Shown here: in pieces, positions 4,789-62,472 of the stretch
Layout: the number at the start of each line of letters is the position of its first letter
Position numbering within the stretch: position 1 is the first letter of the stretch
Sequence record: OX016465
Origin: Escherichia phage vB_Eco_Tribble
DNA: 64,000 nt
Strand: one strand, 5' to 3'
Translations under genes and position numbers: made by a program
Notes under the pieces: model-generated
Databases searched by the model: none
What the model was told of the DNA's origin: nothing
The model's input: the letters and a program-made list of their open reading frames with translations, nothing else

Positions 4789-6141
4789 ATGTGGAATCCA
4801 ATTGTTAATGTAGATATTACATTGAACACCGCAGGAACTACAAGAGAAGGTTTTGGTTTGCCACTATTCTTAGCTTCAACAGATAACTTTGAAGAAAGAG
4901 TACGTGGTTACACTTCCTTAACTGAAGTTGCTGAAGATTTCGATGAAAACTCTGCTGCATATAAGGCTGCTAAACAACTTTGGAGTCAGACTCCTAAAGT
5001 AACTCAGCTTTATATTGGTAGACGTGCTATGCAGTACACTGTATCAATTCCTGATGCCGTTACCGAAAGTACAGACTACTCAATTACTGTAGCTGTTGGC
5101 GGTGGAATTTCTCAACCATACCAGTACACAGCACAAGATTCAGACACTGCTGAGGTAGTGTTGCAACAGTTTAAAACACAGATTGAAGCTGACCCAACAA
5201 TCAAAGATAAGGTTTCTGTGAATGTAACTGGTAGCAATGGCTCTGCCACAATGATTATTACCAAAGCTGGTGATAATGACTTTGTGAAAGTAACAACCAC
5301 AGCACAGACTGTATATATTGCAAGTACAACTGCCGATACAGCAGCAACTGCTCTGGCAGCTATCGAAGCTTATTCTACCGACTGGTATTTCATTGCAGCA
5401 GAAGACAGAACTCAACAGTTTGTCTTAGCAATGGCTTCTGAGATTCAGGCTCGCAAGAAAATCTTCTTTACAGCTAACTCGGATGTAACAGCACTGCAAG
5501 GCACAGAACTAGCCAGTGCAAATGATGTTCCAGCACAGCTTGCTAAGAATATGTACACTCGTACAGTTTGCTTGTGGCATCACGCAGCAGCAGAAGATTA
5601 CCCAGAGATGGCATACATTGCTTATGGTGCTCCATATGATGCAGGTTCAATTGCTTGGGGTAATGCTCAGCTAACTGGTGTAGCAGCTTCTCTACAACCA
5701 TCTAATCAGAGACCTCTGACAAGTATTCAGAAGTCTGCTTTAGATGTACGTCACTGTAACTTTATTGACCTTGATGGTGGTGTTCCAGTGGTTCGTAGAG
5801 GGATTACTTCTGGTGGGGAATGGATTGATATCGTCCGTGGTGTTGACTGGTTAGAATCAGACCTGAAAACTTCTCTGAGAGACTTGCTAATTAACCAGAA
5901 GGGTGGTAAGATTACTTATGATGATACTGGTATTACCCGTATTCGTCAAGTCATTGAAACCTCTCTGCAAAGAGCAGTCAACAGAAACTTCCTGTCATCT
6001 TACACAGTTAATGTTCCTAAAGCCTCTCAAGTTGCTTTAGCAGACAAGAAAGCGCGTATCCTAAAAGATGTTACCTTCGCAGGTATCTTAGCAGGGGCTA
6101 TCTTGGATGTTGACTTGAAAGGTACAGTGGCTTACGAATAA
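4789..6141 (+). CDS. Tail sheath protein
   Basis: 450 aa ORF followed by a ~150 aa tube-like ORF, the sheath-tube order of contractile tails. Confidence 0.5.
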   Translation: MWNPIVNVDITLNTAGTTREGFGLPLFLASTDNFEERVRGYTSLTEVAEDFDENSAAYKAAKQLWSQTPKVTQLYIGRRAMQYTVSIPDAVTESTDYSITVAVGGGISQPYQYTAQDSDTAEVVLQQFKTQIEADPTIKDKVSVNVTGSNGSATMIITKAGDNDFVKVTTTAQTVYIASTTADTAATALAAIEAYSTDWYFIAAEDRTQQFVLAMASEIQARKKIFFTANSDVTALQGTELASANDVPAQLAKNMYTRTVCLWHHAAAEDYPEMAYIAYGAPYDAGSIAWGNAQLTGVAASLQPSNQRPLTSIQKSALDVRHCNFIDLDGGVPVVRRGITSGGEWIDIVRGVDWLESDLKTSLRDLLINQKGGKITYDDTGITRIRQVIETSLQRAVNRNFLSSYTVNVPKASQVALADKKARILKDVTFAGILAGAILDVDLKGTVAYE

Positions 6142-7317: not shown

Positions 7318-15333
<8,016 letters not shown>

Positions 15334-15335
15334 TA

Positions 15336-16484
15336 ATGGCAGTAGGTGAAATTCAAATTAGTGCCTTGCCTCAAGCAGCCTTACCAATTGACCTTAGTGA
15401 TATCTTCCATCTTAAACAGGGTATCGAGGATAAGAGATGTACTCTTGAGCAATTACTTGCTCCACACTCAAGCCTAAGAAATAACCCACATGGTGTTACT
15501 AAGACACAAATTGGTTTAGATAACGTTATTAATGCTCTCCAGTTAGTTGCTGAAAATAACTTATCAGATATTGTTAATGTAGCTGAGGCAAGAGCGAATC
15601 TACAGATTATGTCTTCAGAAGAGGTTAATAATCTTATTCAACAGCATATTGATGATAAGAGCAACCCACACAATACTACTAAGGCACAGGTTGGGTTAAG
15701 CAATGTTCAGAACTGGGTGACATCTAACCTTTATAATGAGGATGCAGATAAGTATGCTACAGCAAGAGCAGTAAATAACTTGTACAAGGCTGTTCAGGCT
15801 TCTTATCCAGTAGGTACTATCCATCTCTCTATGAATCCTGCAAACCCTTCTACATATTTAATTTGTGGAGGTACTTGGGAGTTAGTTTCAAAAGGAAGAG
15901 CACTTGTAGGTTATGATAGTGCTTCTAGGCCAGTTGGTTCAACGTTTGGTTCGCAGACTACTGCACTGACAGTTAACAACATTCCTGCACATACTCACTC
16001 AGTATACGTCACTGGTGGTGGTCACACACACGGTGCAACGGCCTCTATCAGTGCTTTTGACTACGGTACTAAAGGGACTACAACGTTTGACTATGGAACA
16101 AAGACTGTATCTACTTATGACTATGGTAACAGAACAACCAGTGCTGCTGGTTTAACACAAACAACATTCATTAATCGTGGTTATGCTGATGGTGGTTGGA
16201 GAGGTTTATCAGTTGAGGGGGCAAGCTATGACCCAAGAGCTACGCTGACAACAGCTAACAACCACACTCACTCTGTAGCAATTGGTGCGCATAATCACAC
16301 AGTGGGGATTGGTGCTCACAGCCATTCTGTTGCAATTGGTTCCCACAACCACTCAGCAACAGTAACAGTAACCGGAGCAGGTGAGCATTCGCACTCTGGC
16401 ACAACTGGCACAACTGGTTCTGGTCAAGCGTTTAGCGTTGAACAGCCATCCTTCGTATTGTATGTATGGCAGAGAACAGCTTAA
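15336..16484 (+). CDS. Tail fibre protein with tail-fibre repeats and His-x-His tip
   Basis: Repeated NPHxxTKxQ(I/V)GLxNV motifs; C-terminal HTHS/AHNHT/AHSHS/SHNHS repeats; C-terminus resembles that of the next gene. Confidence 0.6.
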   Translation: MAVGEIQISALPQAALPIDLSDIFHLKQGIEDKRCTLEQLLAPHSSLRNNPHGVTKTQIGLDNVINALQLVAENNLSDIVNVAEARANLQIMSSEEVNNLIQQHIDDKSNPHNTTKAQVGLSNVQNWVTSNLYNEDADKYATARAVNNLYKAVQASYPVGTIHLSMNPANPSTYLICGGTWELVSKGRALVGYDSASRPVGSTFGSQTTALTVNNIPAHTHSVYVTGGGHTHGATASISAFDYGTKGTTTFDYGTKTVSTYDYGNRTTSAAGLTQTTFINRGYADGGWRGLSVEGASYDPRATLTTANNHTHSVAIGAHNHTVGIGAHSHSVAIGSHNHSATVTVTGAGEHSHSGTTGTTGSGQAFSVEQPSFVLYVWQRTA

Positions 16485-16494
16485 TTTCTTTACA

Positions 16495-16514
16495 GGGGCT
16501 GTATAGCCCCTTTT
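16495..16514 (+). terminator. Intrinsic terminator between the two fibre genes
   Basis: GGGGCT-GTAT-AGCCCC hairpin followed by TTTT. Confidence 0.5.
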
Positions 16515-16530
16515 AAGAGGAAAATTTATA

Positions 16531-18864
16531 ATGGCAGATTACAAGTTGAGTGAATTAAACTCAATTGATACAATTCGTTCAGACGACCTCCTTCATGTCA
16601 GGGTTAAAAAGAGACCTGAAATGCTGGGTGATGAAGACCGTCGAATGACCTATCAAGACTTCTTAGCGTCTTTTAAACTAGAAAGATTTGTTCAGATTGC
16701 TGGTAGCACTATGACGGGTGACTTAGGGATTGTTAAGTTACTTTATGGTGGTAAGGCAGTCTTTGACCCTACAGGCTCTTCTGAGATTACTATGGGGGAT
16801 GTTTTAAAGACTTTTAAAATTAATGCAAATGGTCTTAAACTAACTATTGCAGATGCTTCAAGGTCTGCAACTGTTTATCATACTCTTAATAAGCCAAGCC
16901 CTAATGAACTTGGGATGAGAACTAATGCTGAGAATGATGCTAGATATGCTAGATTAGAAGTACTAAATACTTTTAAGTCTAGGCAGACAATTGTAGCAGA
17001 TGGTCAAGCACTGTTGTTAAGAAGTGCAACTGATAGCCCTTCTCTCTATGTTAGAGGTCAAGACCCATCTGGAACTAATAAATGGTATGTTGGATTTAAT
17101 ACTTCAAATGTTCTTGGATTATCAAATGAAGCCTCTGGCACGACATTGACATTGGATTCAGCAGGTATTAATTCTAATAAGAATTTAAATATCACTGGTC
17201 AGGTTAAACCTTCAGACTGGTCTAACCTAGATGATAGATACTTTACCCAAACATTGGCTAATCAAAGATTTGCACAGTTGGCTGGTAATAACACTTTTAA
17301 CGGCACTAATACATTCAACCAACTGAGTGTTTTCAAAAAAGATGGTGAAGCAATTAGGCTACAGAATGCCAATGCTGCACAACCATTGTACATTAAAGCA
17401 ATTGATAGCACAGGTGTCAACAGATGGTACATTGGTAATAGTAACGAAGGTGATAACGTAGCTCTAGAAAACTACAAAACTAGTGGCAAGATTACTGTAG
17501 GGACAAGTGTTAATATCAATAAAACACTAACTGTAACTGGTCAAGTTCAACCTTCAGATTGGACTAACATTGACTCTAGATATATTCCGGCAGCAACATT
17601 AAGCACTCTTGCAAAAATTAATGCTAAGAATACTTTTTCTCAAGGTCAGATTATTAAGGCTGATGGAGAGGGTATTAGGCTTCAAGGGGTAAATGATACT
17701 GGTGGTTTGTTCTTGCAAGGTTATACTTCTGATGGTGCTAAAAAGTGGTTTATGGGTACTAATGCTTCAGGAAACTTTACTATCAGGGAGATGGTGTTAG
17801 GTACTGAACTGTCTCTTAGAGAGAACTATATCCAGTTTAATAAGAATGTAACAATCACTGGGCAGGTTCAACCATCAGACTGGACTAACCTAGATAAAAG
17901 GTACTATACCGGTTCAGCATCAAACGCCAGATACATGTATGCAGGAAAAACTGGTGAAGGTGATAATGATGCTGCTATTGCTTGGGATGCTAAGACAGGG
18001 CTGTATAATGTCAAGACTGGAGCTACATCATCAAATCTTTTACTTCAGTTATATCAGGGGTCTGAGTCATCTACACCGTCTGCGCAGCTAAGATTTAAAT
18101 GGGCGAATGGTGGTATGTGGTATAGGACATCAAGAGATGGTGATGGCTTTGAGAAAAGTTGGGCTATGGTGTACACAACTGCACAGAAGCCAACCCCTTC
18201 AGATATTGGTGCATACACTAAAGCAGAAACTGACCAGAAGATTGCACAGGCAGTAAGTGATTCAACAGACCTTAATAAAATCTACCCTGTTGGTATTGTA
18301 ACGTGGTTTAACAGTAACGTTAACCCTAATACAGCACTGCCTGGTCTAACTTGGACGTACCTTAACAATGGTGTAGGTAGAACAATCAGGATTGCAGCAG
18401 CTAACGGTTCAGATGTTGCTACAACTGGTGGTTCAGATTCTGTAACGTTATCTGTTGGTAACTTACCTTCACACACACACAGTTTTTCTGCTACTACTTC
18501 GTCTTTTGACTACGGAACAAAAAACACTAACACGACTGGTGCTCACACCCACTCTGTAAGTGGTTCTACTTCATCTGCTGGTAACCACAGCCACTCTATT
18601 TCGTGGATTGGTCAGAACTCACAGCACTATTCCGGTGGTGGTGGTGGTTACATTGGTACAGGGCCGGGTTACACCGATGCTAACGGTGCTCACACCCACT
18701 CTGTAAGTGGTACTGCCGCTTCTGCTGGTAACCATGCTCACAGTGTTGGTATTGGTGCTCACAGTCATACAGTTAGTGGTAACACTGGTGGTACAGGTTC
18801 TGGTTCAGCATTTAGTGTTACTAACCAGTTCTATAAGTTAATGGCTTGGGTGAGGACTGCTTAA
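16531..18864 (+). CDS. Long tail fibre / receptor-binding protein with internal ~100-aa repeats and His-x-His tip
   Basis: Four repeat modules each ending in T(I/V)TGQV(K/Q)PSDW(S/T)N(L/I)D(D/S/K)RY; C-terminal HTHS/NHSHS/AHSHT motifs; C-terminus …SGSAFSV…WVRTA parallels the 15336 gene. Confidence 0.65.
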
Positions 18865-18943
18865 TCCCTTATTGACTGATTGTTAAGATGGTGTTAATAT
18901 TCTTTATAGGTATTCTCACCATCTTGGCTGATGAGGTGATTAA

Positions 18944-19138
18944 ATGCCTACAATCCTAGCAATTCTCCTAAAAAATCTAGGTAGTTTCTTCTGGAAACTC
19001 ATTTTATCTCTTCTAAGTGAATACATGATTGAGAAAGTGTTCTTTAAGCTTGCAAGATACCTTGCGGGTAAGACAGACACCCCTATTGATGATGAATTCG
19101 TAGATAACTTAGAAAAAGCTTTTAAGGGGGAGAAATAA
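18944..19138 (+). CDS. Small hydrophobic protein (possible holin-like)
   Basis: 64 aa with hydrophobic N-terminal segment; at the 3' end of the late operon. Confidence 0.25.
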   Translation: MPTILAILLKNLGSFFWKLILSLLSEYMIEKVFFKLARYLAGKTDTPIDDEFVDNLEKAFKGEK

Positions 19139-19510
19139 ATGAAGTGGATAGAGGAAGCTTTTAAAAATAATATTGGTGCAATTGTTGTTGGTATTTTTAG
19201 TGTTATTGGGATGTATACCACGATGCAAGTTTCAAGTGGTAAGCAAGAGGTGTCTGTCACAACAAAATTACAGCAGCTAGATAATTATAGCAAATCTAAT
19301 TACTCAGCTATTCGTGATTTACAGTCTGACATAAGACTTATTCAGTTAGGGATGGAGAACCAGAAAGTTCAGTTAGAGAATGTTAAGGGTGAGAATGCAA
19401 AACTTACCAAAACTCTTGATAAATTCTCTGACAGTGTGAATAATCTGGCTCAATCAGTATCAGCCCTCCAAGCTATTACTGAAAAGAACACAAAGAATAC
19501 TGAAAAATAA
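19139..19510 (+). CDS. Membrane-anchored coiled-coil protein
   Basis: N-terminal TM-like segment (IGAIVVGIFSVIGMY) followed by a coiled-coil-like region. Confidence 0.3.
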   Translation: MKWIEEAFKNNIGAIVVGIFSVIGMYTTMQVSSGKQEVSVTTKLQQLDNYSKSNYSAIRDLQSDIRLIQLGMENQKVQLENVKGENAKLTKTLDKFSDSVNNLAQSVSALQAITEKNTKNTEK

Positions 19511-19516
19511 AATTTA

Positions 19517-19550
19517 AGGCTCCTTTTTACGGGAGCCTTTTTTTTTTTTG
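19517..19550. terminator. Bidirectional intrinsic terminator between convergent modules
   Basis: AGGCTCC-TTTTTAC-GGGAGCC hairpin followed by 12 T; sits between the end of the plus-strand late operon (19510) and the end of minus-strand thyA (19553). Confidence 0.7.
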
Positions 19551-19552
19551 TT

Positions 19553-20452
19553 TTACTTACCTACTGACAGAGGTGCTTCAATCTTTCCTGCATGTTGGTA
19601 GTTGCTAATACCACCAATAAAATCACTTGCGGTAAGGTGTTTTAGGTCACTTAGCGTGTTAAGCTGCACACCAATCTCAAAAGTAGGCGCATGGAACTCT
19701 TTATTGTTCATCAGTTCATAAACCTGCTTCATATGGTTCTGATAAATCTGAGTATCCCCAAAGACACCTATCAAGTACCGTGGAGTATATCCAGTCATCT
19801 TGCAAAGTACTTCCAGAATAAAACCATAAGATGCAATGTTAAATGGAAGACCTAAAAAGGTGTCTACAGAACGTTGATACCATTGTAAGTCAACCTCACC
19901 TTCGTTAGTGATATAAATCTGAAACAGAACATGACAAGGTGCTAAAGCCATTGAGTTAGCTGCAATATCTGCTGCATTCCAAGCATTAACAAGCATGTAA
20001 CGGTCTGTGATATCACCTTTCATCTTCGTTACTAAGGTCTCTAACTGGTCTACAACACAACCGTTATGACCTTCAAAGTTTCTCCACTGAACCCCGTAGA
20101 TTCTCCCACCTGCATCTTCTAACCAGTCTTGCTCAGAAGAATAGTTAGAGCTTAACCAGCGTTTAAAATCATCTGACCAGATAGTCCAACGTTCCCCATC
20201 ATTTTCACCCCAAGTACGGTAACGGAGTTCACCAAGTTTATTCTCACCATTCAGGAACCATAAAGCTTCCCCAATAACTTGCCGTGTAAACACCTGTTTA
20301 GATGTTAAGAGTGGGAAACCAGTACGCATATCAAAACGAAATTTTGGTGGAGCAAATGCAGAGATAACATCTCCAGTTCGTGTAGTACGCAGTTCACCAA
20401 CGGATAAAACATGGTTCAGGATATTTTTGTAACTCAAATCAGCTTGTGACAT
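19553..20452 (-). CDS. thyA: Thymidylate synthase
   Basis: Conserved ThyA motifs: FPLLTSK, EALWFLNGE, IYGVQWR, ALAPCH, LGLPFNIASY. Confidence 0.9.
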   Translation of the reverse strand: MSQADLSYKNILNHVLSVGELRTTRTGDVISAFAPPKFRFDMRTGFPLLTSKQVFTRQVIGEALWFLNGENKLGELRYRTWGENDGERWTIWSDDFKRWLSSNYSSEQDWLEDAGGRIYGVQWRNFEGHNGCVVDQLETLVTKMKGDITDRYMLVNAWNAADIAANSMALAPCHVLFQIYITNEGEVDLQWYQRSVDTFLGLPFNIASYGFILEVLCKMTGYTPRYLIGVFGDTQIYQNHMKQVYELMNNKEFHAPTFEIGVQLNTLSDLKHLTASDFIGGISNYQHAGKIEAPLSVGK

Positions 20453-22146: not shown

Positions 22147-22476
22147 TTAATCTGCCAACCTTAAATTGAAATTAACACCAAATTTTTCGCATACTTCCAA
22201 CATATACTCAAGGGAGACGTTACCAGTGAGGTGGATTATGTTGGATACACGAGCCTGAGAGATACCACAAATTTTAGCGACTTGCTCTTGAGAAAGACCT
22301 CTGGATTTAATCTCTCTCTTAAAACGATGTGCAACGAAGTCTCTCATTTCGTCTACATCCATTGGACAAATATAACTCTCCATTTCAGCCTCTCTATCAG
22401 CCTCCCAATCATCTTGTGGAGCATAAGGGTCAAAAACCTCATTCATCTTTCTTCTTCCGTTTGCGTGAAGTGTCAA
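22147..22476 (-). CDS. XRE-family helix-turn-helix DNA-binding protein
   Basis: C-terminal HTH signature GLSQEQVAKICGISQARVSNI; acidic N-terminus; true start may be the internal Met at about 22446. Confidence 0.55.
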   Translation of the reverse strand: MTLHANGRRKMNEVFDPYAPQDDWEADREAEMESYICPMDVDEMRDFVAHRFKREIKSRGLSQEQVAKICGISQARVSNIIHLTGNVSLEYMLEVCEKFGVNFNLRLAD

Positions 22477-27289: not shown

Positions 27290-27846
27290 TCAGTGTACCT
27301 CATACCAGCTTTTACCAACCTTACCAGTACCTGTAACAAGTGTTTCTTTCTTAAGACCTAAGTTCTTAGAAGCTTGTCCATAATACCAGTCAGTAACTGC
27401 CTTCACCTCTGCCGTCATACTTTCTGGGCATTCCCAACTTGTCTCGTCGTGATAGGAGCACAATAAACGAGCACCTATAGCTGGTTTACGACCGTTCAAC
27501 TTCATCAAACCTTCGTCAATCATACGACGGCAAGCAAGGTTAATTGCTTCATTCTGAACCTGCGCCTCACTACCCATAAGTGTGTAATTCAATAACTTAT
27601 GTGGAGATTTACACCATAACCACGCTCCAGCGACCTGAATGTACCCACCCTTAGCGATTGCAGCACTCTTGCCGAAAACCTCTTCTAATGCCTTCTTAGT
27701 GGCCTTAAAATCGGCTTCTAAGTTATCAAGTAGTTTCTTAATCTTTGGTAGACGCATATAGTAGGTCTGCTTAGTCAATGCACCTTCCTCTGTAGAAGCT
27801 GCCTTAATGGTTTTGGCAAACTTCTCATCACCTGCACCGAACAATA
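27290..27846 (-). CDS. DNA polymerase (family A), exon 2
   Basis: Begins with LFGAGDEK, completing T7-type motif B (T7: …IYGFLYGAGDEK…); contains HDE motif C (SYHDET). 5' boundary is a model. Confidence 0.65.
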
Positions 27847-28651
27847 CATCTGGTCAATACACTCGCAAGGTGTACCAGTTCTCTTATGAACTTCTCCGCA
27901 TTTCTACGGAGTGTCGGACTATATCACGTAGTAGTAATACTACCGTTGCACTTGGGAATGGTCATTAGCTTACCACCCTACTCTACTCAGTTCATACATT
28001 AAGTATGCTTTTCGATAGTCTCTGAACGTTTCTCTGTTAGGAACTCTAAAATACTATTATTTACTAAGGTATGCAATTGCTCTCTTCATGTTCTCTATAC
28101 TATCTGAGAACAGCCCAAGACCTCTGTTACAGTTGTGACACAGCATACCTCTTACCTGTCCTGTTTTGTGGTCATGGTCAACAACCAGCTTGGCTTTATG
28201 TCTTGAACCATCCATGATAAAACCTTCACCACCGCAGATTTGACACTTGTGACCACACTTACTTAGTAACTCTTCGACCTCTTCTCTTTCTAAGCCGTAA
28301 GTCCTTAAGTAATAGTTCTTTACCCTTCCCTTTTCTCCACAAGCAGAACTGCAATACGTCTGTCTTGCTGTTCTAGGTGTAAACTGGTTATTGCAACTTG
28401 GACATATTTTCTCTATGACACGACTTGCTGCTCTTCTGTCTACTTCAAGAACGCAGTTTCTACAACGTTTTTGATTGTACTGATATGGCTTAAACTCTTC
28501 GCCACATCTGGAACAAACTCTTTCTTTATAACCTGCCATTGTCTCTCTCCCATTTCTACTATAGGAGTCCTAACAGAGACTTCGCTGCTGATTACCATAT
28601 CTTTTAAGACTTAGGCTTCCAGCAATTCACAACGTTTTACATGCGCCACTG
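27847..28651 (-). mobile_element. Group I intron in the DNA polymerase gene, carrying an HNH endonuclease ORF
   Basis: Interrupts pol at motif B; R-like GTTCAGAGACTATC (plus 28014-28027) and S-like GATATAGTCC (plus 27914-27923); modelled exon 1 ends in U and intron ends in G. Confidence 0.6.
28057..28539 (-). CDS. HNH homing endonuclease (endonuclease VII-like), intron-encoded
   Basis: HNH core LVVDHDHKTGQVRGMLCHNCNRGLG; several CxxC zinc-finger pairs; lies between the two polymerase segments. Confidence 0.8.
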   Translation of the reverse strand: MAGYKERVCSRCGEEFKPYQYNQKRCRNCVLEVDRRAASRVIEKICPSCNNQFTPRTARQTYCSSACGEKGRVKNYYLRTYGLEREEVEELLSKCGHKCQICGGEGFIMDGSRHKAKLVVDHDHKTGQVRGMLCHNCNRGLGLFSDSIENMKRAIAYLSK

Positions 28652-30824
28652 ACGCATAGATACCATTCTTAGCCTTCTTACGGCCTTTAGTTATCTCGTG
28701 AAGGAGTTCCTCATCCTGTGTCTCTCTACAACGGATAATATCTTCTTCTTTGTTCAATGCAAAATAGATACTGTTAAGTGTATGCGCATCAGTACCTGTG
28801 TAGACTTCATACAAATCATTATCAGCATCGTAACGACAATATTTATCAGCCTCTGGATTTAGGTACTTATCAAGATGCTTGCAGTAGTATCGTCCATCAT
28901 CCTGTTTAGTGAACTCTACAAACTCTTTACCTTCAGTTACCGCTTTGGTGAAGTCTTTATCACCCATAAAGTTACACAGTAAAACAAGCTGTGCAGAGTT
29001 CTGGTCAACTGAAACGATATTAGTCCCTTCCTCACAAATCCACACCTCCCTCATAGGTGCTCCATAGACAGCAGCACCAGACGGTACGTTTACAATACCA
29101 TATTGTGTCATACGTCCAGTTGAAGTACCAAACACCATTGCACCAGCACTAAGGCGACCATCTGGACGAATCTGGTTCAACCAACCTTTTTCATCATCCT
29201 TTGAGTTCTCAATAGTTCTGCGTCGGTGCATCAAAGTATAGTACTTAGCAATCTTCTGTCCAAGTTCACCTTCAATCGTATCATAAGATGATTCAGTAAG
29301 TTTTGGTGAAGTACGGATTAAGCAAGGCTCAAGCAAATCTGTGTACTTCTTCACAGACCAGTTATGCTCAATGTACTGTACACCTTCATGTTCAACATAA
29401 CTCAAACCACACCGCTCAACCATTTCCTGCCACTTAGGATGTTTTGTAATCATCTTTTTATTGTCTTTGAAACGACAAACTTTGACAGGGCGACCATCAG
29501 AGTCTTTCTTGTAGTTCCAGTCATCTGGAATCCAACCAACTGATTTCAAGTAGTCTTTAACAACTGCTACCTGAGTCATACGAGAAACTTCAAACTCAAT
29601 TGGTGTATATGGTGCATCAATCAAACCTGTGTAGCGACTTGACTCAAGTTCAAAGTGGTTAACAACGTGGCTGTTATAATACTTCACAGTTTTAACTGTT
29701 TTTACTGGCTTCCAGTCTTTGCATTTCTTACCAATCTTTGCGTTCAACTCATTGCAAATTGCACGAGCATCCTTCATTGCTACAAAGCCTTCCTTGTACT
29801 CTTCACCAGTTACAGTGTTGGTTGGTGTATAGCAATTCCTTTTTTCAATGTTAAAAATCTTTGTAGTTGGCTTACCAAATGGTTTGATTTCGTATGTCTG
29901 CATCTCGCCATTACGTACCTGCTGACGATACTTTGTCTTAGGGTACTTGGTAATTCTTTTCAGTCCATCTGCATGACCAAATGTTTCAACATACTCATTC
30001 CAAGCTTTTGCAAACTCTTCTCCAGTAACTTTACCTTTAGTCTTAATAGTTGGAGGAAGATGTGGTTCAACTTCTGAAGCAAGCTCATTAGTCAACTTGT
30101 CAAGTTCCTTTACATGGAACTCCATAAGCTCTTTATCAGCTTTCCAACCATTGATAGCTTGTTGACTCATCCAGAAAGATGTTTCTTTAGCTCGCATGTA
30201 AGTTTCATAAGTGTCTATACCACACTTCTTAAGCTTGAGATACTCGTTATCAAGTGCCCGTTTAGTTTTGGCGTTAATACGGATATCTTCTACAACACGA
30301 GTGAAGATTTCTGCATTCCACACACCCCAATGTTCAATCTCTGGTTTACGGACACCAACACGAGCACCCCATGCAGCCAAACCATGAGCACCTTTATAAC
30401 CCTTTGGAGTTGGCCTATCCATCCACTGAACACGAGACTGGATAAGAGAATCCTGAAAGAAATTACTCCACGGCTTACATTTTGGATTATCAAAATTCCA
30501 TAAATCAGGTGCAATGTGATTGAAAACCCACCAGTCATATCCGAGACCATTATGGATGCAAAGACGTTTTGCCTTTAACGCAAACTCAATACCTTCTCGT
30601 AAGCCACCCTTAATGTACTTAGTGTACTTGTGACCGAGGATAGGCTCATCTGTAAAGACCCATACAGGTGGCTCTTCATCGTCAGATTTATAGTCTGCAA
30701 AGGCCATTACGTGAACTTTAGTGAACTCAAGGAGTAAACCATCAGTTTCTGTATCACCAACCAAATGTAAGTTTTTAAAATCTACGTTTTCCATTTTTAC
30801 TCCCTCTAAAACCATTAACCTCAT
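28652..30824 (-). CDS. DNA polymerase (family A), exon 1 with 3'-5' exonuclease domain
   Basis: Exo I motif LVGDTETDGL; polymerase motif A region (VSVDQNSAQLVLL); ends inside motif B (…RKKAKNGIY). The annotated ORF runs 14 codons into the intron before a stop at 28611. Confidence 0.75.
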
Positions 30825-31051
30825 ACATTACTGCAAAAAATTATAAAAAGCAAGTTGACAATGCACTTGACAAGGTGTTAATCTTTGCGAAGTGGGTTTT
30901 TACTTAAAAGGTTACTTAACAGTTTAACTATACAGATACTTTAAAACTCTTAAAAGATTATTTAATAGCTTTTAAAAAGCTTTAAAGTATAACGTATAGA
31001 ATACGTTAAGATAAAAGATTAAAACTTAATAGTTACTTAAAAGAGGCTTAC
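30825..31051. promoter_or_regulatory. Divergent intergenic control region between minus-strand and plus-strand modules
   Basis: 227 bp AT-rich; tandem TTGACA hexamers (30855-30860, 30867-30872); inverted repeat AACGTAT-AGA-ATACGTT (30991-31007); AAAGCTTT palindromes. Confidence 0.4.
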
Positions 31052-36662: not shown

Positions 36663-37703
36663 ATGGAGAAGTACACATTAACAAAACTTCCCGATTCAGT
36701 TACACATGTCTTTATTGACTCTGACAGTATTGCCTATAAAGGTGCTTGTGTAGTTGAGAAAGCAAAGTATAAATATGTCAATAAACTCACAGCAGAAGAG
36801 TCTGAGCCATTTGATAATGCGAAAGATGCCGCAAGATGGTTAGCAGACCAGAGAATCTTTGTGGAAGAGCTTGGTCTGACATTTGATGAAGATGAATGGG
36901 AAAGACAGACTTGGAAAGAAGCTAAGAGTGAAAAAGAAGCTATCATGGCTACTCAACAGGTTCTTCAGGAATGGCTTAAGGTTGTTGGTAAAGATAGAAC
37001 TTGGGTGGGTTATTTAACAGAGAAAGGTGTGCATAAACATAAAGACATTAAAGGTCTTGAGCACCAATATCAAGGTAACCGCAAAGATGCTGTCACACCA
37101 ACACACTTAGTTGCTTGTCGTGAATATCTTTTATCCAGACCAGAGTTCAAACTCTTAAGGGGTGGCTTCGAAGCCGATTCAATCGTAATTGCTAAAGCTG
37201 AAAAGATGGGTAAGAAAGCTGCTCTTATGAGTATTGACAAAGACCTTCGACAAGCTGAAGGAACTTATTGTATTGATATGACTTATGAAAAGTCACCACT
37301 AATTTTTATCGCTGATAATAATGTTGGTGATATCTGGGATTGCCCTATCAAATCAAAACCAAAAGCTGCAAAAACAGTTGGTGTAGGTTTTAAATTCTTG
37401 TGTTATCAGGCTGTTGCTGGAGATAATGCAGACAACTACTTTGGCCTTAAAGGTGCTGGTAAAGTAGCTGTGATGAATGCTTTAGAGGGTAAAGAAACCT
37501 ACAAAGAGTGTCTTGACGCTATCTATGAACTTTATGCTAAAAAAGACTCTTATACCTATGTGTCATGGGATGGTCAGACTGTTACAAAGACACCGTTAGA
37601 GTTAATGGAACAGCATTTCTGGGTGGCATATCAAGAGAGAAATCCAAAAGATAATTTCTCTTTTAAGAAATATAATTGGGAGCCGTGTATGAATGAAGAT
37701 TAA
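36663..37703 (+). CDS. 5'-3' exonuclease (T7 gene 6 / FEN-like)
   Basis: Acidic clusters resembling T7 gp6 as recalled: HVFIDSDSIAY, SIDKDLRQ, GDNADNYFGLKGAG. Confidence 0.6.
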   Translation: MEKYTLTKLPDSVTHVFIDSDSIAYKGACVVEKAKYKYVNKLTAEESEPFDNAKDAARWLADQRIFVEELGLTFDEDEWERQTWKEAKSEKEAIMATQQVLQEWLKVVGKDRTWVGYLTEKGVHKHKDIKGLEHQYQGNRKDAVTPTHLVACREYLLSRPEFKLLRGGFEADSIVIAKAEKMGKKAALMSIDKDLRQAEGTYCIDMTYEKSPLIFIADNNVGDIWDCPIKSKPKAAKTVGVGFKFLCYQAVAGDNADNYFGLKGAGKVAVMNALEGKETYKECLDAIYELYAKKDSYTYVSWDGQTVTKTPLELMEQHFWVAYQERNPKDNFSFKKYNWEPCMNED

Positions 37704-38190
37704 AGGATTTGGCAATTGCCCCACCTATGGCCATTGGGTATCTTTATGTGGGGAGGTTGACCCCACTAAACATTTTGGCTTTGTCTATTTAGTACACTGT
37801 AAGAAGACTGGACAATACTATATAGGAAAGAAACAGCTTAACAGTGTGACCAAAAGAAAAGTTGCTGGGAAGACTCGGAAGAAGGTAGTCACTAAGGAAA
37901 GTGATTGGATGACTTACGAGACTTCTTCTGAGTATATTAAAAAAGATATTGAAAGCTTTGGAAAGGAATCTTTTGACTTTTACATTATCCAAACCTACTA
38001 CACAAAAGGTGGCCTAGTTTATGGAGAAGCAAACCTTCAACATAAGTTCGATGTAATGACAAAAAGGATTGACTCGAAGCTCAGACTCTTCTACAATGCC
38101 AATATTGCAGCAATTAAGTTTATTACTAAAGAAACTTATGAAGATGCTGAAAAAAGAATCCATAAGGTAATGAAAGCAAATTGTGCTTGA
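37693..38190 (+). CDS. Hypothetical protein with possible GIY-YIG-like nuclease motif
   Basis: GFVY-x10-YIGKK spacing resembles GIY-x(9-11)-YIG; otherwise unassigned. Confidence 0.25.
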   Translation: MKIKGFGNCPTYGHWVSLCGEVDPTKHFGFVYLVHCKKTGQYYIGKKQLNSVTKRKVAGKTRKKVVTKESDWMTYETSSEYIKKDIESFGKESFDFYIIQTYYTKGGLVYGEANLQHKFDVMTKRIDSKLRLFYNANIAAIKFITKETYEDAEKRIHKVMKANCA

Positions 38191-57544: not shown

Positions 57545-57570
57545 AGGCTGCTTCGGCGGCCTTTTTTATT
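57545..57570 (+). terminator. Intrinsic terminator after the rIIB-like gene
   Basis: GGCTGC-TTCG-GCGGCC hairpin (one G-U pair) followed by TTTTTTATTT. Confidence 0.55.
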
Positions 57571-57597
57571 TGTATTTTGTGCAGAGTGCTGTATAAT
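57569..57597 (+). promoter_or_regulatory. Candidate promoter with perfect TATAAT upstream of the transglycosylase gene
   Basis: TATAAT at 57592-57597 with weak -35 TTTGTA 17 nt upstream; contains TTGTGCAGAG, related to the iteron core at 61.7-61.9 kb. Confidence 0.35.
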
Positions 57598-60877: not shown

Positions 60878-61663
60878 ATGGGTATTGTAAAAATCATCAA
60901 AGGTGATATCTTTGAAGCATTTGATAAAGGTAAATTTGATATCATTGGTCATGGTTGCAACTGTATGAATTTCATGGGTGCAGGTATTGCAGCAACTATT
61001 TCTAAGCGTTATCCAAAAGTGTATGATACTGACACAGAAGTTTACCTGTTTGCAGGTGGCATTCGTCACAAACCCTGTGAAAATTTACTAGGTAATTTAT
61101 CTGTAGCACGTTTAAAACAAGGTCGTATAGCTAACCTTTACACCCAACTTCATACTGGTAAAGATGCACGATACAGTGCTTTAGAGTCATCTTTGAAACA
61201 GCTTAACAGATACTGTGAAGTCAATCAGTTGAAGAAAGTTGGTTTTCCTATGATTGGTGCAGGTATTGGTGGACTTGACCCTCAAGCTGTCACAGTTATC
61301 ATCAATCAGGTGATGAAGAGTGTGGATGTTTATCTGTATGTCTATGAAGGAGAGATGTACCACAAGTTACGCTCAGGTTGGAAGAACTACTGTGAACCAG
61401 AATACTTTGCAGGTGTAGTTGTGTTCACGGATAATGCAGTTACCCTCTTCAGACGAAGAAAAGGTAAGATACATCAAAGTAACCCTCCGGTTGAAAAGAT
61501 GTCTCTAAGTAACGCTCTAGTTACCCACCTGTCGAAGAGCAATCATAGAATTGCCGTGACATTTGGTAGTGATGCAGACACCTACATCTATGCAAGAACT
61601 GATGAGGATATCGAGACAGTTTTCTCTTCGCCAGAAGTTACCTTCTTAGACGCAAAGAACTAA
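60878..61663 (+). CDS. Macrodomain protein (TARG1/DarG-like ADP-ribosyl hydrolase fold) with C-terminal extension
   Basis: GDIFEAFDKGKFDIIGHGCNCMNFMGAGIAATISKRYP resembles the TARG1-type motif …AHCISEDCRMGAGIA… as recalled; second Gly-rich loop FPMIGAGIGGLDP. Confidence 0.55.
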   Translation: MGIVKIIKGDIFEAFDKGKFDIIGHGCNCMNFMGAGIAATISKRYPKVYDTDTEVYLFAGGIRHKPCENLLGNLSVARLKQGRIANLYTQLHTGKDARYSALESSLKQLNRYCEVNQLKKVGFPMIGAGIGGLDPQAVTVIINQVMKSVDVYLYVYEGEMYHKLRSGWKNYCEPEYFAGVVVFTDNAVTLFRRRKGKIHQSNPPVEKMSLSNALVTHLSKSNHRIAVTFGSDADTYIYARTDEDIETVFSSPEVTFLDAKN

Positions 61664-61710
61664 GAAACTTCGTAGGATATTCACAATAGACTAAGCCTTT
61701 CTTATCTGGT

Positions 61711-61915
61711 AAATTTTTCAGGTAAGGAGGGCTTTTTCATTTCAGAATTGTGCAGGTATATTTCTATAGAGAAATCTGTAGAGTGAATTTTGAACTCCAA
61801 AGAGAAAATTCATTTTCAAACTGTGCAGGTAATCTCCAAAGAGCTTTTTCATTTTCAAAACGTGCAGAGAAAAATCAGGTCGGGCAAGAAAAATCATTTG
61901 AGAATTGTGCAGGTA
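61711..61915. repeat. Array of 4-5 direct repeats (iteron-like), core TTTTCATTTTCA(A/G)AANTGTGCAGGTA
   Basis: Copies at 61733-61758, 61805-61832, 61845-61870, 61889-61915 and a partial at 61711-61727, in a 510-bp noncoding region. Confidence 0.6.
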
Positions 61916-62092
61916 GGTGGGTGTAGGTGGGGCTGTCGCCATTTCTCACAAGGCTACCACATCTGAAAATAAAAGTCAAAAGAAAAATTTGTAGCGGATT
62001 GAAAAATAATTCTTGATTGTAGTTCTGTTTTGTGGTAATCGCGCGCACCCGTTTCATTACATTTTTGCCAAAAATATTTTTAAAAATTTTCA

Positions 62093-62121
62093 TTGACTCC
62101 TTGAACGGGTTTTTATAGTAT
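62093..62121 (+). promoter_or_regulatory. Candidate sigma70-type promoter TTGACT-N17-TAGTAT upstream of the small-gene cassette
   Basis: TTGACT 62093-62098, 17-nt spacer, TAGTAT 62116-62121; about 55 nt upstream of ATG 62175. Confidence 0.45.
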
Positions 62122-62174
62122 TTGCATCAGACGGGGCGACAAGCCCGACAGCCTTAAACTAGGAGAACTTAAAA

Positions 62175-62381
62175 ATGCTATACGGTCGTGAATTGATGGT
62201 TACAACTAACGTTAACACAAAGGTAAAACGTTTTTACATGCAAATCTGTGGCGTATGGTCTAGAATATCAGAAGCTGACTATTGCAACTATGTAGAAACA
62301 GCAATCAACTCTGATTGCTACCTTACAAGAAATACAAGAAAGCACATAAGACAGACAGCAGTTTATTACTACGATATCTAA
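62175..62381 (+). CDS. Hypothetical small protein (cassette gene 1)
   Basis: 68 aa; GGAGAACTTAAAA leader before ATG. Confidence 0.4.
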   Translation: MLYGRELMVTTNVNTKVKRFYMQICGVWSRISEADYCNYVETAINSDCYLTRNTRKHIRQTAVYYYDI

Positions 62382-62472
62382 TAAAGTACTTTACAGGGGG
62401 CTTAAAAGTTGATATCTTAAGCCCCAGATAAAGAGCTTTACCACATTAACCCTTAAACTAGGAGATTCAGAA
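62379..62472 (+). repeat. Conserved intergenic repeat A (stop codon - TTTACA - GC hairpin - AGATAAAGAGCTTTACC - RBS)
   Basis: TAATAAAGTACTTTACAGGGGGCTTAAAAGTTGATATCTTAAGCCCCAGATAAAGAGCTTTACCAC…GGAGA; 9-bp stem GGGGCTTAA/TTAAGCCCC. Confidence 0.6.

Follow-up and report, generated by a model that had tools for sequence, protein, structure and literature searches.

The repeat array and its setting

The DNA analyzed here is a 64-kb stretch (64,000 nucleotides of record OX016465) of Escherichia phage vB_Eco_Tribble, hereafter the window, and the element in question is an array of direct repeats located in a non-coding gap at about 61.7 kb. The window belongs to the genus Felixounavirus. On its 5′ side the gap is bordered by the gene of a macro-domain protein (60878–61663; 261 amino acids; Pfam Macro) and on its 3′ side by an early gene for 68 amino acids (62175–62381), with which a series of small early genes opens; the gap, the macro-domain gene and the downstream early genes are all on the + strand. 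A preliminary description of the sequence had placed repeats in a non-coding region of 510 bp, which is borne out, the gap measuring 511 bp. The array region matches 248–257 phage records at 70–97% identity, nearly all of them from Felixounavirus and related Ounavirinae (phages of E. coli, Salmonella, Shigella, Citrobacter and Erwinia). The gap is best explained as a non-coding control region that the Ounavirinae, the Felix-O1-like phages, have conserved.

The unit of the array is a 28-bp bipartite repeat, G-mwwww-TCATTT-N7-GTGCAGGTA, in which a T/A-rich box ending in TCATTT is followed by seven variable bases and then by GTGCAGGTA, so that the site is asymmetric. Four copies and a degenerate fifth lie in the same (+) orientation, with start-to-start distances of 73, 39 and 45 bp between the four, in agreement with the preliminary description, which had listed four full copies and one partial copy at irregular spacing. 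In 300 dinucleotide-preserving shuffles of the gap, counting non-overlapping copies with an identity of at least 19/28, a single copy was found in 191, two copies in 107, three in 2 and four, the number in the real gap, in none. The repeats are beyond chance. The 10-mer TGTGCAGGTA has three exact occurrences in the window, every one in the array, and 13 sites when up to one mismatch is allowed, against 4.9 expected.

The core motif was searched for across the whole window, as the preliminary description had proposed, using a weight matrix built from 24 copies of four genera. A single locus was returned: the array copies score 33.7–40.5 bits, while all other positions on either strand stay below 8 bits and only two of them reach 6. 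The complete 87.6-kb genome of UAB_Phi87 gives the same picture, with four copies of 34.5–39.4 bits and a runner-up site of 10.0 bits. Because there is one locus per genome, the motif is not one of those promoter or regulatory elements that recur throughout a genome; the other early promoters downstream carry no repeat copy in the matrix scan.

The preliminary description had named a lack of conservation in related phages as a point that would tell against its reading. The repeat is kept across the Ounavirinae genera: the array is present in wV8 and typing phage 1 (Felixounavirus), mistaenkt (Suspvirus), Mijalis and Sf14 (Mooglevirus) and the Erwinia phages (Kolesnikvirus), in which three to five copies per genome, usually four, stand behind the terminator of the macro-domain gene. 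The layout common to the genera consists of the terminator, four same-strand copies, a C/G-skewed tract and, 180–250 bp further on, a sigma-70-type promoter. The spacing changes from genus to genus (75/41/45 in Mooglevirus and 37/37/39 in the Erwinia phages), whereas the 28-mers hardly change. Over 23 sequences from three genera, 68–75% of the columns of the repeat core are invariant. For comparison, the adjacent gene has 65.5% invariant columns at its first and second codon positions and 23% at the third; the corresponding values are 12% in linker 3 and 15% in the tract that follows the array.

When viral, metagenome and species-genome collections were scanned for the pattern, arrays turned up only in Ounavirinae-like contigs, most of them of 80–94 kb and with three to five copies. 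Arrays in bacterial genomes were considered and rejected, all 37 of the 37 pattern hits scoring below 18 bits and being chance matches or unrelated tandem repeats. The most informative contig is a distant 88-kb relative, L104 (IMGVR_UViG_3300045988_063805), whose proteins are 29–42% identical to those of the window. It retains five repeat copies in two clusters after the macro-domain gene (reverse strand, around 5290–5780); beyond them comes an AT-rich run in which TTAACA-type repeats, roughly a dozen in number, are spaced roughly 10–12 nt apart. Because neutral DNA would be unrecognizable at this distance, the comparison indicates that the motif is under strong purifying selection across the phage subfamily.

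Some database entries with array-like or Felix-O1-like DNA stand apart. The IMG/VR contig L031 passes into unrelated GC-rich DNA right after copy 3 and is a chimeric assembly. An unrelated 16.6-kb viral contig, L045 (IMGVR_UViG_3300023096_000157), has a single motif-like TTTTCATTTTAAAGCTGTGCATAG at 4857–4900 with a run of ten Gs 12 nt later, probably by chance. The 147-kb record GU169904, named 'Staphylococcus phage SA1', contains Felix-O1-like DNA at about 87% identity.

Table 1. Features of the array gap and of two further sites in the window.
Feature	Position	Strand	Remarks
Gap as a whole	61664–62174	.	best explained as a control region; from the list of open reading frames; homologous gap in 257 phage records; no open reading frame kept across genera
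Intrinsic (rho-independent) terminator of the upstream operon	61693–61734	+	-25.8 kcal/mol, z = -6.8; annotated in wV8
Copy 1, GCTTTTTCATTTCAGAATTGTGCAGGTA	61731–61758	+	39.4 bits; 71% of columns invariant
Degenerate partial copy, TTTCTATAGAGAAATCTGTAGAGT	61761–61784	+	under the matrix threshold
Copy 2, GAAAATTCATTTTCAAACTGTGCAGGTA	61804–61831	+	40.5 bits; 68% invariant; preceded by the conserved linker CTCCAAAGAG (61795–61804)
Copy 3, GCTTTTTCATTTTCAAAACGTGCAGAGA	61843–61870	+	36.5 bits; 68% invariant; preceded by CTCCAAAGAG (61834–61843)
Copy 4, GAAAAATCATTTGAGAATTGTGCAGGTA	61888–61915	+	33.7 bits; 75% invariant
Variable GC-skewed tract, 53 nt	61919–61971	.	type A in the window, type B in relatives; 15% of columns invariant
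Second conserved non-coding block, AT-rich, AAAAGTCAA.AGAAAAATTTGTAG...TGAAAAATAATTCTTGA	61972–62035	.	69% of columns invariant; locally low duplex stability
Short GC-rich segment closing the AT-rich block, CGCGCGCACCCG	62040–62051	.	sequence; stability profile
Sigma-70-type early promoter, TTGACT-N17-TAGTAT	62093–62121	+	AT-rich upstream stretch; fires away from the array
5′ leader	62122–62174	+	small GC hairpin and repeated CTTAAACTAGGAGA ribosome-binding cassette; annotated as DR_6 in wV8
Isolated weak repeat-like site, CCTTTTTTATTTGTATTTTGTGCAGAGT	57560–57597	+	after the rIIB terminator; ends in a TATAAT -10 hexamer (57592–57597)
Divergent gap	30830–31050	.	between the family A polymerase gene (-) and the primase-helicase operon (+); alternative origin or early control region

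Elements flanking the array and the site at 57.58 kb

The terminator and the array overlap, the U-tract of the former being the first T-run of repeat copy 1. The same terminator is listed as t13 in the genome paper of Felix O1 (PMC3185647).

Copy 4 is followed by a GC-skewed tract that is exactly 53 nt long in two unrelated versions, in each case between the GTGCAGGTAGG of copy 4 and the conserved AAAAGTCAA. In type A, found in the window and in about 60% of its close relatives, the + strand is G-rich and the tract begins with a partial duplication of the repeat 3′ core. The preliminary description had noted a G-rich segment after the repeats; it is present (GGTAGGTGGGTGTAGGTGGGGCTG at 61910–61933) and is partly a tandem duplication of that core, GTGCAGGT(A/G)GG, but it is lineage-specific, being replaced by a C-rich tract in about a third of the close relatives and in the other genera. 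Type B is homopyrimidine and occurs in wV8, UAB_Phi87, Suspvirus and Mooglevirus. A perfect mirror repeat, CCCCTCTCCCCC-TCTTACT-CCCCCTCTCCCC, is found in UAB_Phi87 and several close relatives, together with a four-run G-quadruplex motif on the - strand; the tracts of wV8, Suspvirus and Mooglevirus are C-rich variants of it. A mirror repeat of the homopyrimidine kind is a textbook triplex-forming motif. Type A is not an inverted type B, as direct and reverse-complement alignments are no better than those of shuffles (p about 0.19 and 0.16).

Five assemblies, three GenBank records and two IMG/VR contigs, break within the tract, and all of them have type B, the version seen in L002, L003, L005, L025 and L026. 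Contig L026 runs out in Nextera adapter sequence, and in one record the bases immediately past the tract degrade into Ns. Because the breaks are limited to the homopyrimidine/G-quadruplex version and come with adapter and low-quality ends, they are attributed to sequencing difficulty and not to a DNA end.

The AT-rich block beyond the tract is as conserved as the repeats, and its start weakly resembles copy 4. The promoter named in the preliminary description stands as given there: its TTGAC and the TA.TAT of the -10 element are invariant across three genera. The leader belongs to the repeated promoter/leader cassettes behind which about 15 small early genes lie in the segment beyond the array, and which correspond to the features DR_1 to DR_9 of the wV8 record. 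An identical leader and ribosome-binding unit, CCTTAAACTAGGAGA, occurs at 62152–62166 and at 62451–62465, and the cassette at 62382–62440 has a TTTACA-N17-TATCTT promoter set in a 24-nt inverted repeat.

The preliminary description had also pointed to a related motif next to the TATAAT promoter at about 57.58 kb. In relatives the claim fares better: in Mooglevirus the homologous site reaches 15.8–19.5 bits and in another lineage 23.5 bits, always with TGTGCAG in the -35/-10 spacer of a TATAAT promoter. In the window it is marginal. The site (57,577) has only the 8-mer GTGCAGAG in common with copy 3, and CCTTTTTTATTTGTATTTTGTGCAGAGT (57560–57587) scores 6.8 bits, which places it among the two best non-array positions of about 128,000 and is, on its own, not distinguishable from chance. 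The conservation of the site is not specific, because the whole stretch at 57.58 kb is well conserved and two relatives have TGTGTAG; an Erwinia phage has no such site in the 5.8 kb upstream of its array. A fifth, isolated site at this place is plausible, and the idea of a recurring protein-binding site is reasonable, not proven.

Further observations concern the rest of the window. The family A DNA polymerase is apparently split into ORFs (open reading frames) 28611–30824 and 27290–27844 (- strand), with an endonuclease VII-family ORF (28057–28539) between them; this ORF and a SegE-like GIY-YIG endonuclease ORF at 37693–38190 are probably mobile homing-endonuclease insertions. The tetranucleotide GATC is absent from the window, where about 216–225 occurrences are expected, from the 87.6-kb UAB_Phi87 genome (L012 + L013) and from the Erwinia, Mooglevirus and Suspvirus loci (L041, L091, L120); L104, with 27 in 6.4 kb, has an ordinary content. 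CGCG, CCGG, GCGC and GGCC are several-fold under the expectation from base composition.

Possible functions of the array

The data support a cis-acting element that works as DNA, with four bipartite asymmetric sites in one orientation, shielded by a terminator. The array is very probably a docking site for protein, being unique, strongly conserved, non-coding, without conserved RNA structure and not a genome end. The most economical form of this reading would be a platform for the cooperative binding of one sequence-specific DNA-binding protein. The preliminary description had proposed a replication origin or a multi-site regulator. Its view of a cis-acting binding array is supported, with an origin the likelier of the two functions.

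Tentatively, we place first the reading in which the array is the protein-binding half of a phage replication origin, both protein binding and the origin function being inferred. In such an origin, the upstream terminator would keep incoming transcription off the array, and several copies of one DNA-binding protein, of phage or host, would assemble on the four sites. The structure-prone 53-nt tract would follow, and the AT-rich block closed by the GC segment is a candidate opening or priming zone. The strong early promoter, firing away, would supply negative supercoiling behind the polymerase. The least stable 40–60-bp windows of the gap lie at the 99.5–99.7th percentile of the window, and the AT-rich block has GC-rich flanks. 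Iteron-type origins in phages and plasmids are classically recognized by a unique array of three to six direct repeats with an AT-rich stretch at its side, and the drift of the copy number between three and five, which is typical of iterons, is a point in favor of an origin, as is the AT-rich repeat run behind the array of L104. Initiators such as DnaA and plasmid Rep also have single promoter sites, and the isolated site at 57.56 kb would be in keeping with this.

Several observations weigh against an origin of this kind. Searches of the flanking and operon proteins with Pfam and PHROGs revealed no recognizable DNA-binding or Rep domain. The replisome is T7-like, with a primase-helicase that aligns with T7 gp4 over residues 14–594 and has an acidic tail, and replisomes of the T7 type start from transcription-made primers, without iterons. 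The spacing of the repeats is irregular and not helically phased, and the 28-bp unit is longer than typical iterons of 17–22 bp. The GC skew tracks transcription, with no switch at the array, and the tract beside the array is conserved neither in sequence nor in strand. The array gap has no IHF consensus and no GATC, and its single DnaA-box-like 9-mer (one mismatch) is at chance level. In addition, the least stable DNA of the window and the minimum of the cumulative skew are both found in the divergent gap at about 30.9 kb. CTTAAAAGrTTAyTTAAyAG repeats and an inverted repeat of 27 nt are present in this AT-richer gap, which is as good a candidate for the origin as the array. The possibility that the primase-helicase itself has an origin-binding domain was considered and rejected, its C-terminal extension being an acidic tail like that of T7 gp4, with no extra DNA-binding domain.

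The main rival, which we hold with somewhat less confidence than an origin, is that the array is an operator, in which a phage or host transcription factor would occupy the four sites and the site in the promoter after rIIB and control the early operon bracketed by them (57.6–61.7 kb). Control might take the form of repression, of a roadblock reinforcing the terminator, of looping, or of Q-like antiterminator loading between -35 and -10. The array begins at the end of the bracketed operon, on its terminator, and the best non-array matches in several lineages (15.8–23.5 bits) fall at one homologous place, the promoter after the rIIB terminator. An XRE-type helix-turn-helix protein (22147–22476, - strand; HTH_3, E = 6e-10) is the only recognizable site-specific binder in the window. 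XRE-type dimers, however, usually bind inverted repeats, and the sites here are asymmetric direct repeats. The array lies 180–360 bp upstream of the nearest promoter, with no overlap, and many similar early promoters downstream have no copy. The promoter site itself is weak in the window and was not seen in the Erwinia phage over the 5.8 kb that precede its array; it is TGTGTAG in two relatives and lies in a stretch conserved throughout, so that its conservation is not specific. Resemblances to OmpR C1/F1 sites and to sigma-E and sigma-54 promoters were considered and set aside, as spacing or key bases do not appear to fit. In favor of a regulatory array, the Felix O1 genome paper leaves temporal control and the passage through many terminators unexplained (PMC3185647).

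The position of the array invites a comparison with the injection stop of phage T5. According to this improbable reading, the right-terminal 6.9 kb or so would enter the cell first and stall until early proteins are made, with the array and the structure-prone tract serving as a physical checkpoint that marks off the right-terminal 7.85% of the chromosome. In phage Pr103Blw the array gap starts at 81479, which leaves 6.9 kb, or 7.85% of the genome, to the right end and 6.3 kb to the right terminal repeat, and the segment beyond it contains the small genes with repeated promoter/leader cassettes. In T5, the first step transfers 7.9% of the genome and is halted at an untranslated, conserved region of repeats (bioRxiv 10.1101/866236). 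That region, however, extends over 1.2 kb and abounds in inverted repeats and palindromes, in contrast to the simple direct array, and its eight DnaA boxes are absent here. Two-step entry is not reported for the present phages in the genome literature covered. If true, the reading would extend two-step DNA delivery to a second, unrelated family of virulent enterobacterial phages.

A function in RNA appears very improbable. The array would then be a structured non-coding RNA or, on read-through, a platform for Rho loading or for an RNA-binding protein, with the C-rich tract as a Rho utilization site. In most lineages the tract is indeed C-rich and G-poor on the + strand, and the repeats, rich in U, are predicted to lack structure. 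A very strong terminator nevertheless stands ahead of the array, no conserved promoter feeds it, and the window's own tract starts G-rich. Consensus folding of 266 columns from seven sequences gave -11.2 kcal/mol for the + strand and -3.8 kcal/mol for the - strand, with covariation terms of -0.3 and -0.4. Essentially no covariation is thus present, which rules out a conserved RNA structure on either strand, and an Rfam search of the gap gave no match at E <= 1.

Some records annotate an ORF of 50–58 amino acids over the repeats (for example, wV8 gene 13, 54 amino acids), and a small repeat-containing protein was therefore weighed. In the window, 61750–61926 is stop-free and has a GTG start (58 amino acids), and copies 2–4 are in frame in Felixounavirus, the spacings of 39 and 45 being multiples of three. 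The copies change frame, however, in Mooglevirus and in the Erwinia phages, and neither the Erwinia phage nor L104 has an ORF that covers the array. The annotated ORFs are on differing strands in differing records, and they have no Shine-Dalgarno sequence, whereas the real genes nearby all have a strong GGAG(A) site. A protein is highly unlikely, and with no start signal and a frame that changes between genera it is rejected.

Least probable of all is a genome terminus or packaging site, in which the gap would be or adjoin the short direct terminal repeat and its repeats would be recognized by terminase. The gap is close in size to the terminal repeats of these phages (581–608 bp; PMC4837284, PMC8303462), and five independent assemblies end within the tract, but two independent lines contradict it. 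In UAB_Phi87, the published Bal31-sensitive end fragments (4322 + 2819 - 608 = 6533 bp) fit the 6568-bp fragment 13015–19583 of an in-silico SpeI digest, and the array, at about 22.15–22.34 kb, lies outside it. In Pr103Blw, the annotated 581-bp terminal repeat (87841–88421) is 6.3 kb downstream of the array gap, and four further records begin at the homologous point. The array is thus internal. For Tf, LTH02, ESh20, FO1a and the first UAB_Phi87 version, the record ends are arbitrary cuts or conventional rIIA openings and say nothing about termini.

In typing, biocontrol and therapy, the phages of the Felix O1 kind rank among those of Salmonella and E. coli in widest use, and in-vitro genome assembly followed by rebooting has been demonstrated for Felix O1 (PMC10933291). 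The genome papers of Felix O1, wV8, UAB_Phi87 and VpaE1 contain no mention of the array and describe no replication origin for these phages, and the temporal regulation of transcription is left unexplained in the first of them (PMC3185647). In a literature search the long motif strings were unmatched, and only the 10-mer occurs, in unrelated papers. Among the non-coding sequences of the early region, the array alone is unique in the genome, and it is also kept at 29–42% protein identity; the four 28-mers are therefore a small and precise target for finding the origin or the early regulator. The array also flags spurious gene calls in many database records, and the homopyrimidine/G-quadruplex tract accounts for the frequent assembly breaks at this spot.

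Comparison with known systems

Iteron-type origins include those of lambda (ori), P1 (oriR), R6K and pSC101, and T4 oriE has short direct repeats with RepEB. The array resembles them in its single locus, three to six same-direction repeats, AT-rich neighbor and copy number drifting from three to five, and also in a bipartite repeat long enough for a two-domain binder and a possible extra single promoter site. It differs from them in the unit (28 bp instead of 17–22 bp), in the irregular spacing out of helical phase, and in having no adjacent or recognizable Rep/initiator gene and no DnaA or IHF sites. The replisome, moreover, is T7-like, and the array is found in the host-takeover early region and not in the replication module. 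The array may work like an iteron cluster but lacks the repeat size and phasing of one and a recognizable initiator.

The primary origin of T7 and the T4 origins oriF and oriG consist of a promoter and a downstream AT-rich unwinding element and are primed by a transcript. The phages share with them a replisome of gp4-like primase-helicase and family A polymerase, and the gap offers AT-rich DNA, a strong promoter and, in its GC-skewed tract, a possible means of stabilizing an RNA-DNA hybrid. By contrast, those origins need no repeat array, the AT-rich block is here upstream of the promoter, and the G-rich strand of the tract varies among relatives.

Centromere-like partition arrays, such as F sopC with its 43-bp tandem repeats and P1 parS, offer a further parallel. 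The period of about 37–45 bp and the tandem layout in one direction are similar to sopC. The units of sopC hold an inverted repeat, however, which those of the array lack, and the present phages are virulent, with no ParA/ParB pair recognized among the proteins scanned.

The injection-stop region (iss) of T5 is likewise made up of untranslated conserved repeats, borders small early genes and is situated at about 7.9% from one end, compared with 7.85% here. It differs in its length of 1.2 kb, its inverted repeats, palindromes and eight DnaA boxes, and its location within a 10-kb terminal repeat (bioRxiv 10.1101/866236). The array described here is a simple direct one outside a terminal repeat of 0.6 kb.

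The closest neighbors of the array are the promoter/leader cassettes of Felix O1 and wV8 (DR_1 to DR_9), which occupy the same region, the last 80 bp of the gap being one of them. Unlike the array, which is not annotated in wV8, these cassettes are dispersed, one per gene, as units of promoter, leader and ribosome-binding site; the array is a different sequence, confined to one locus.

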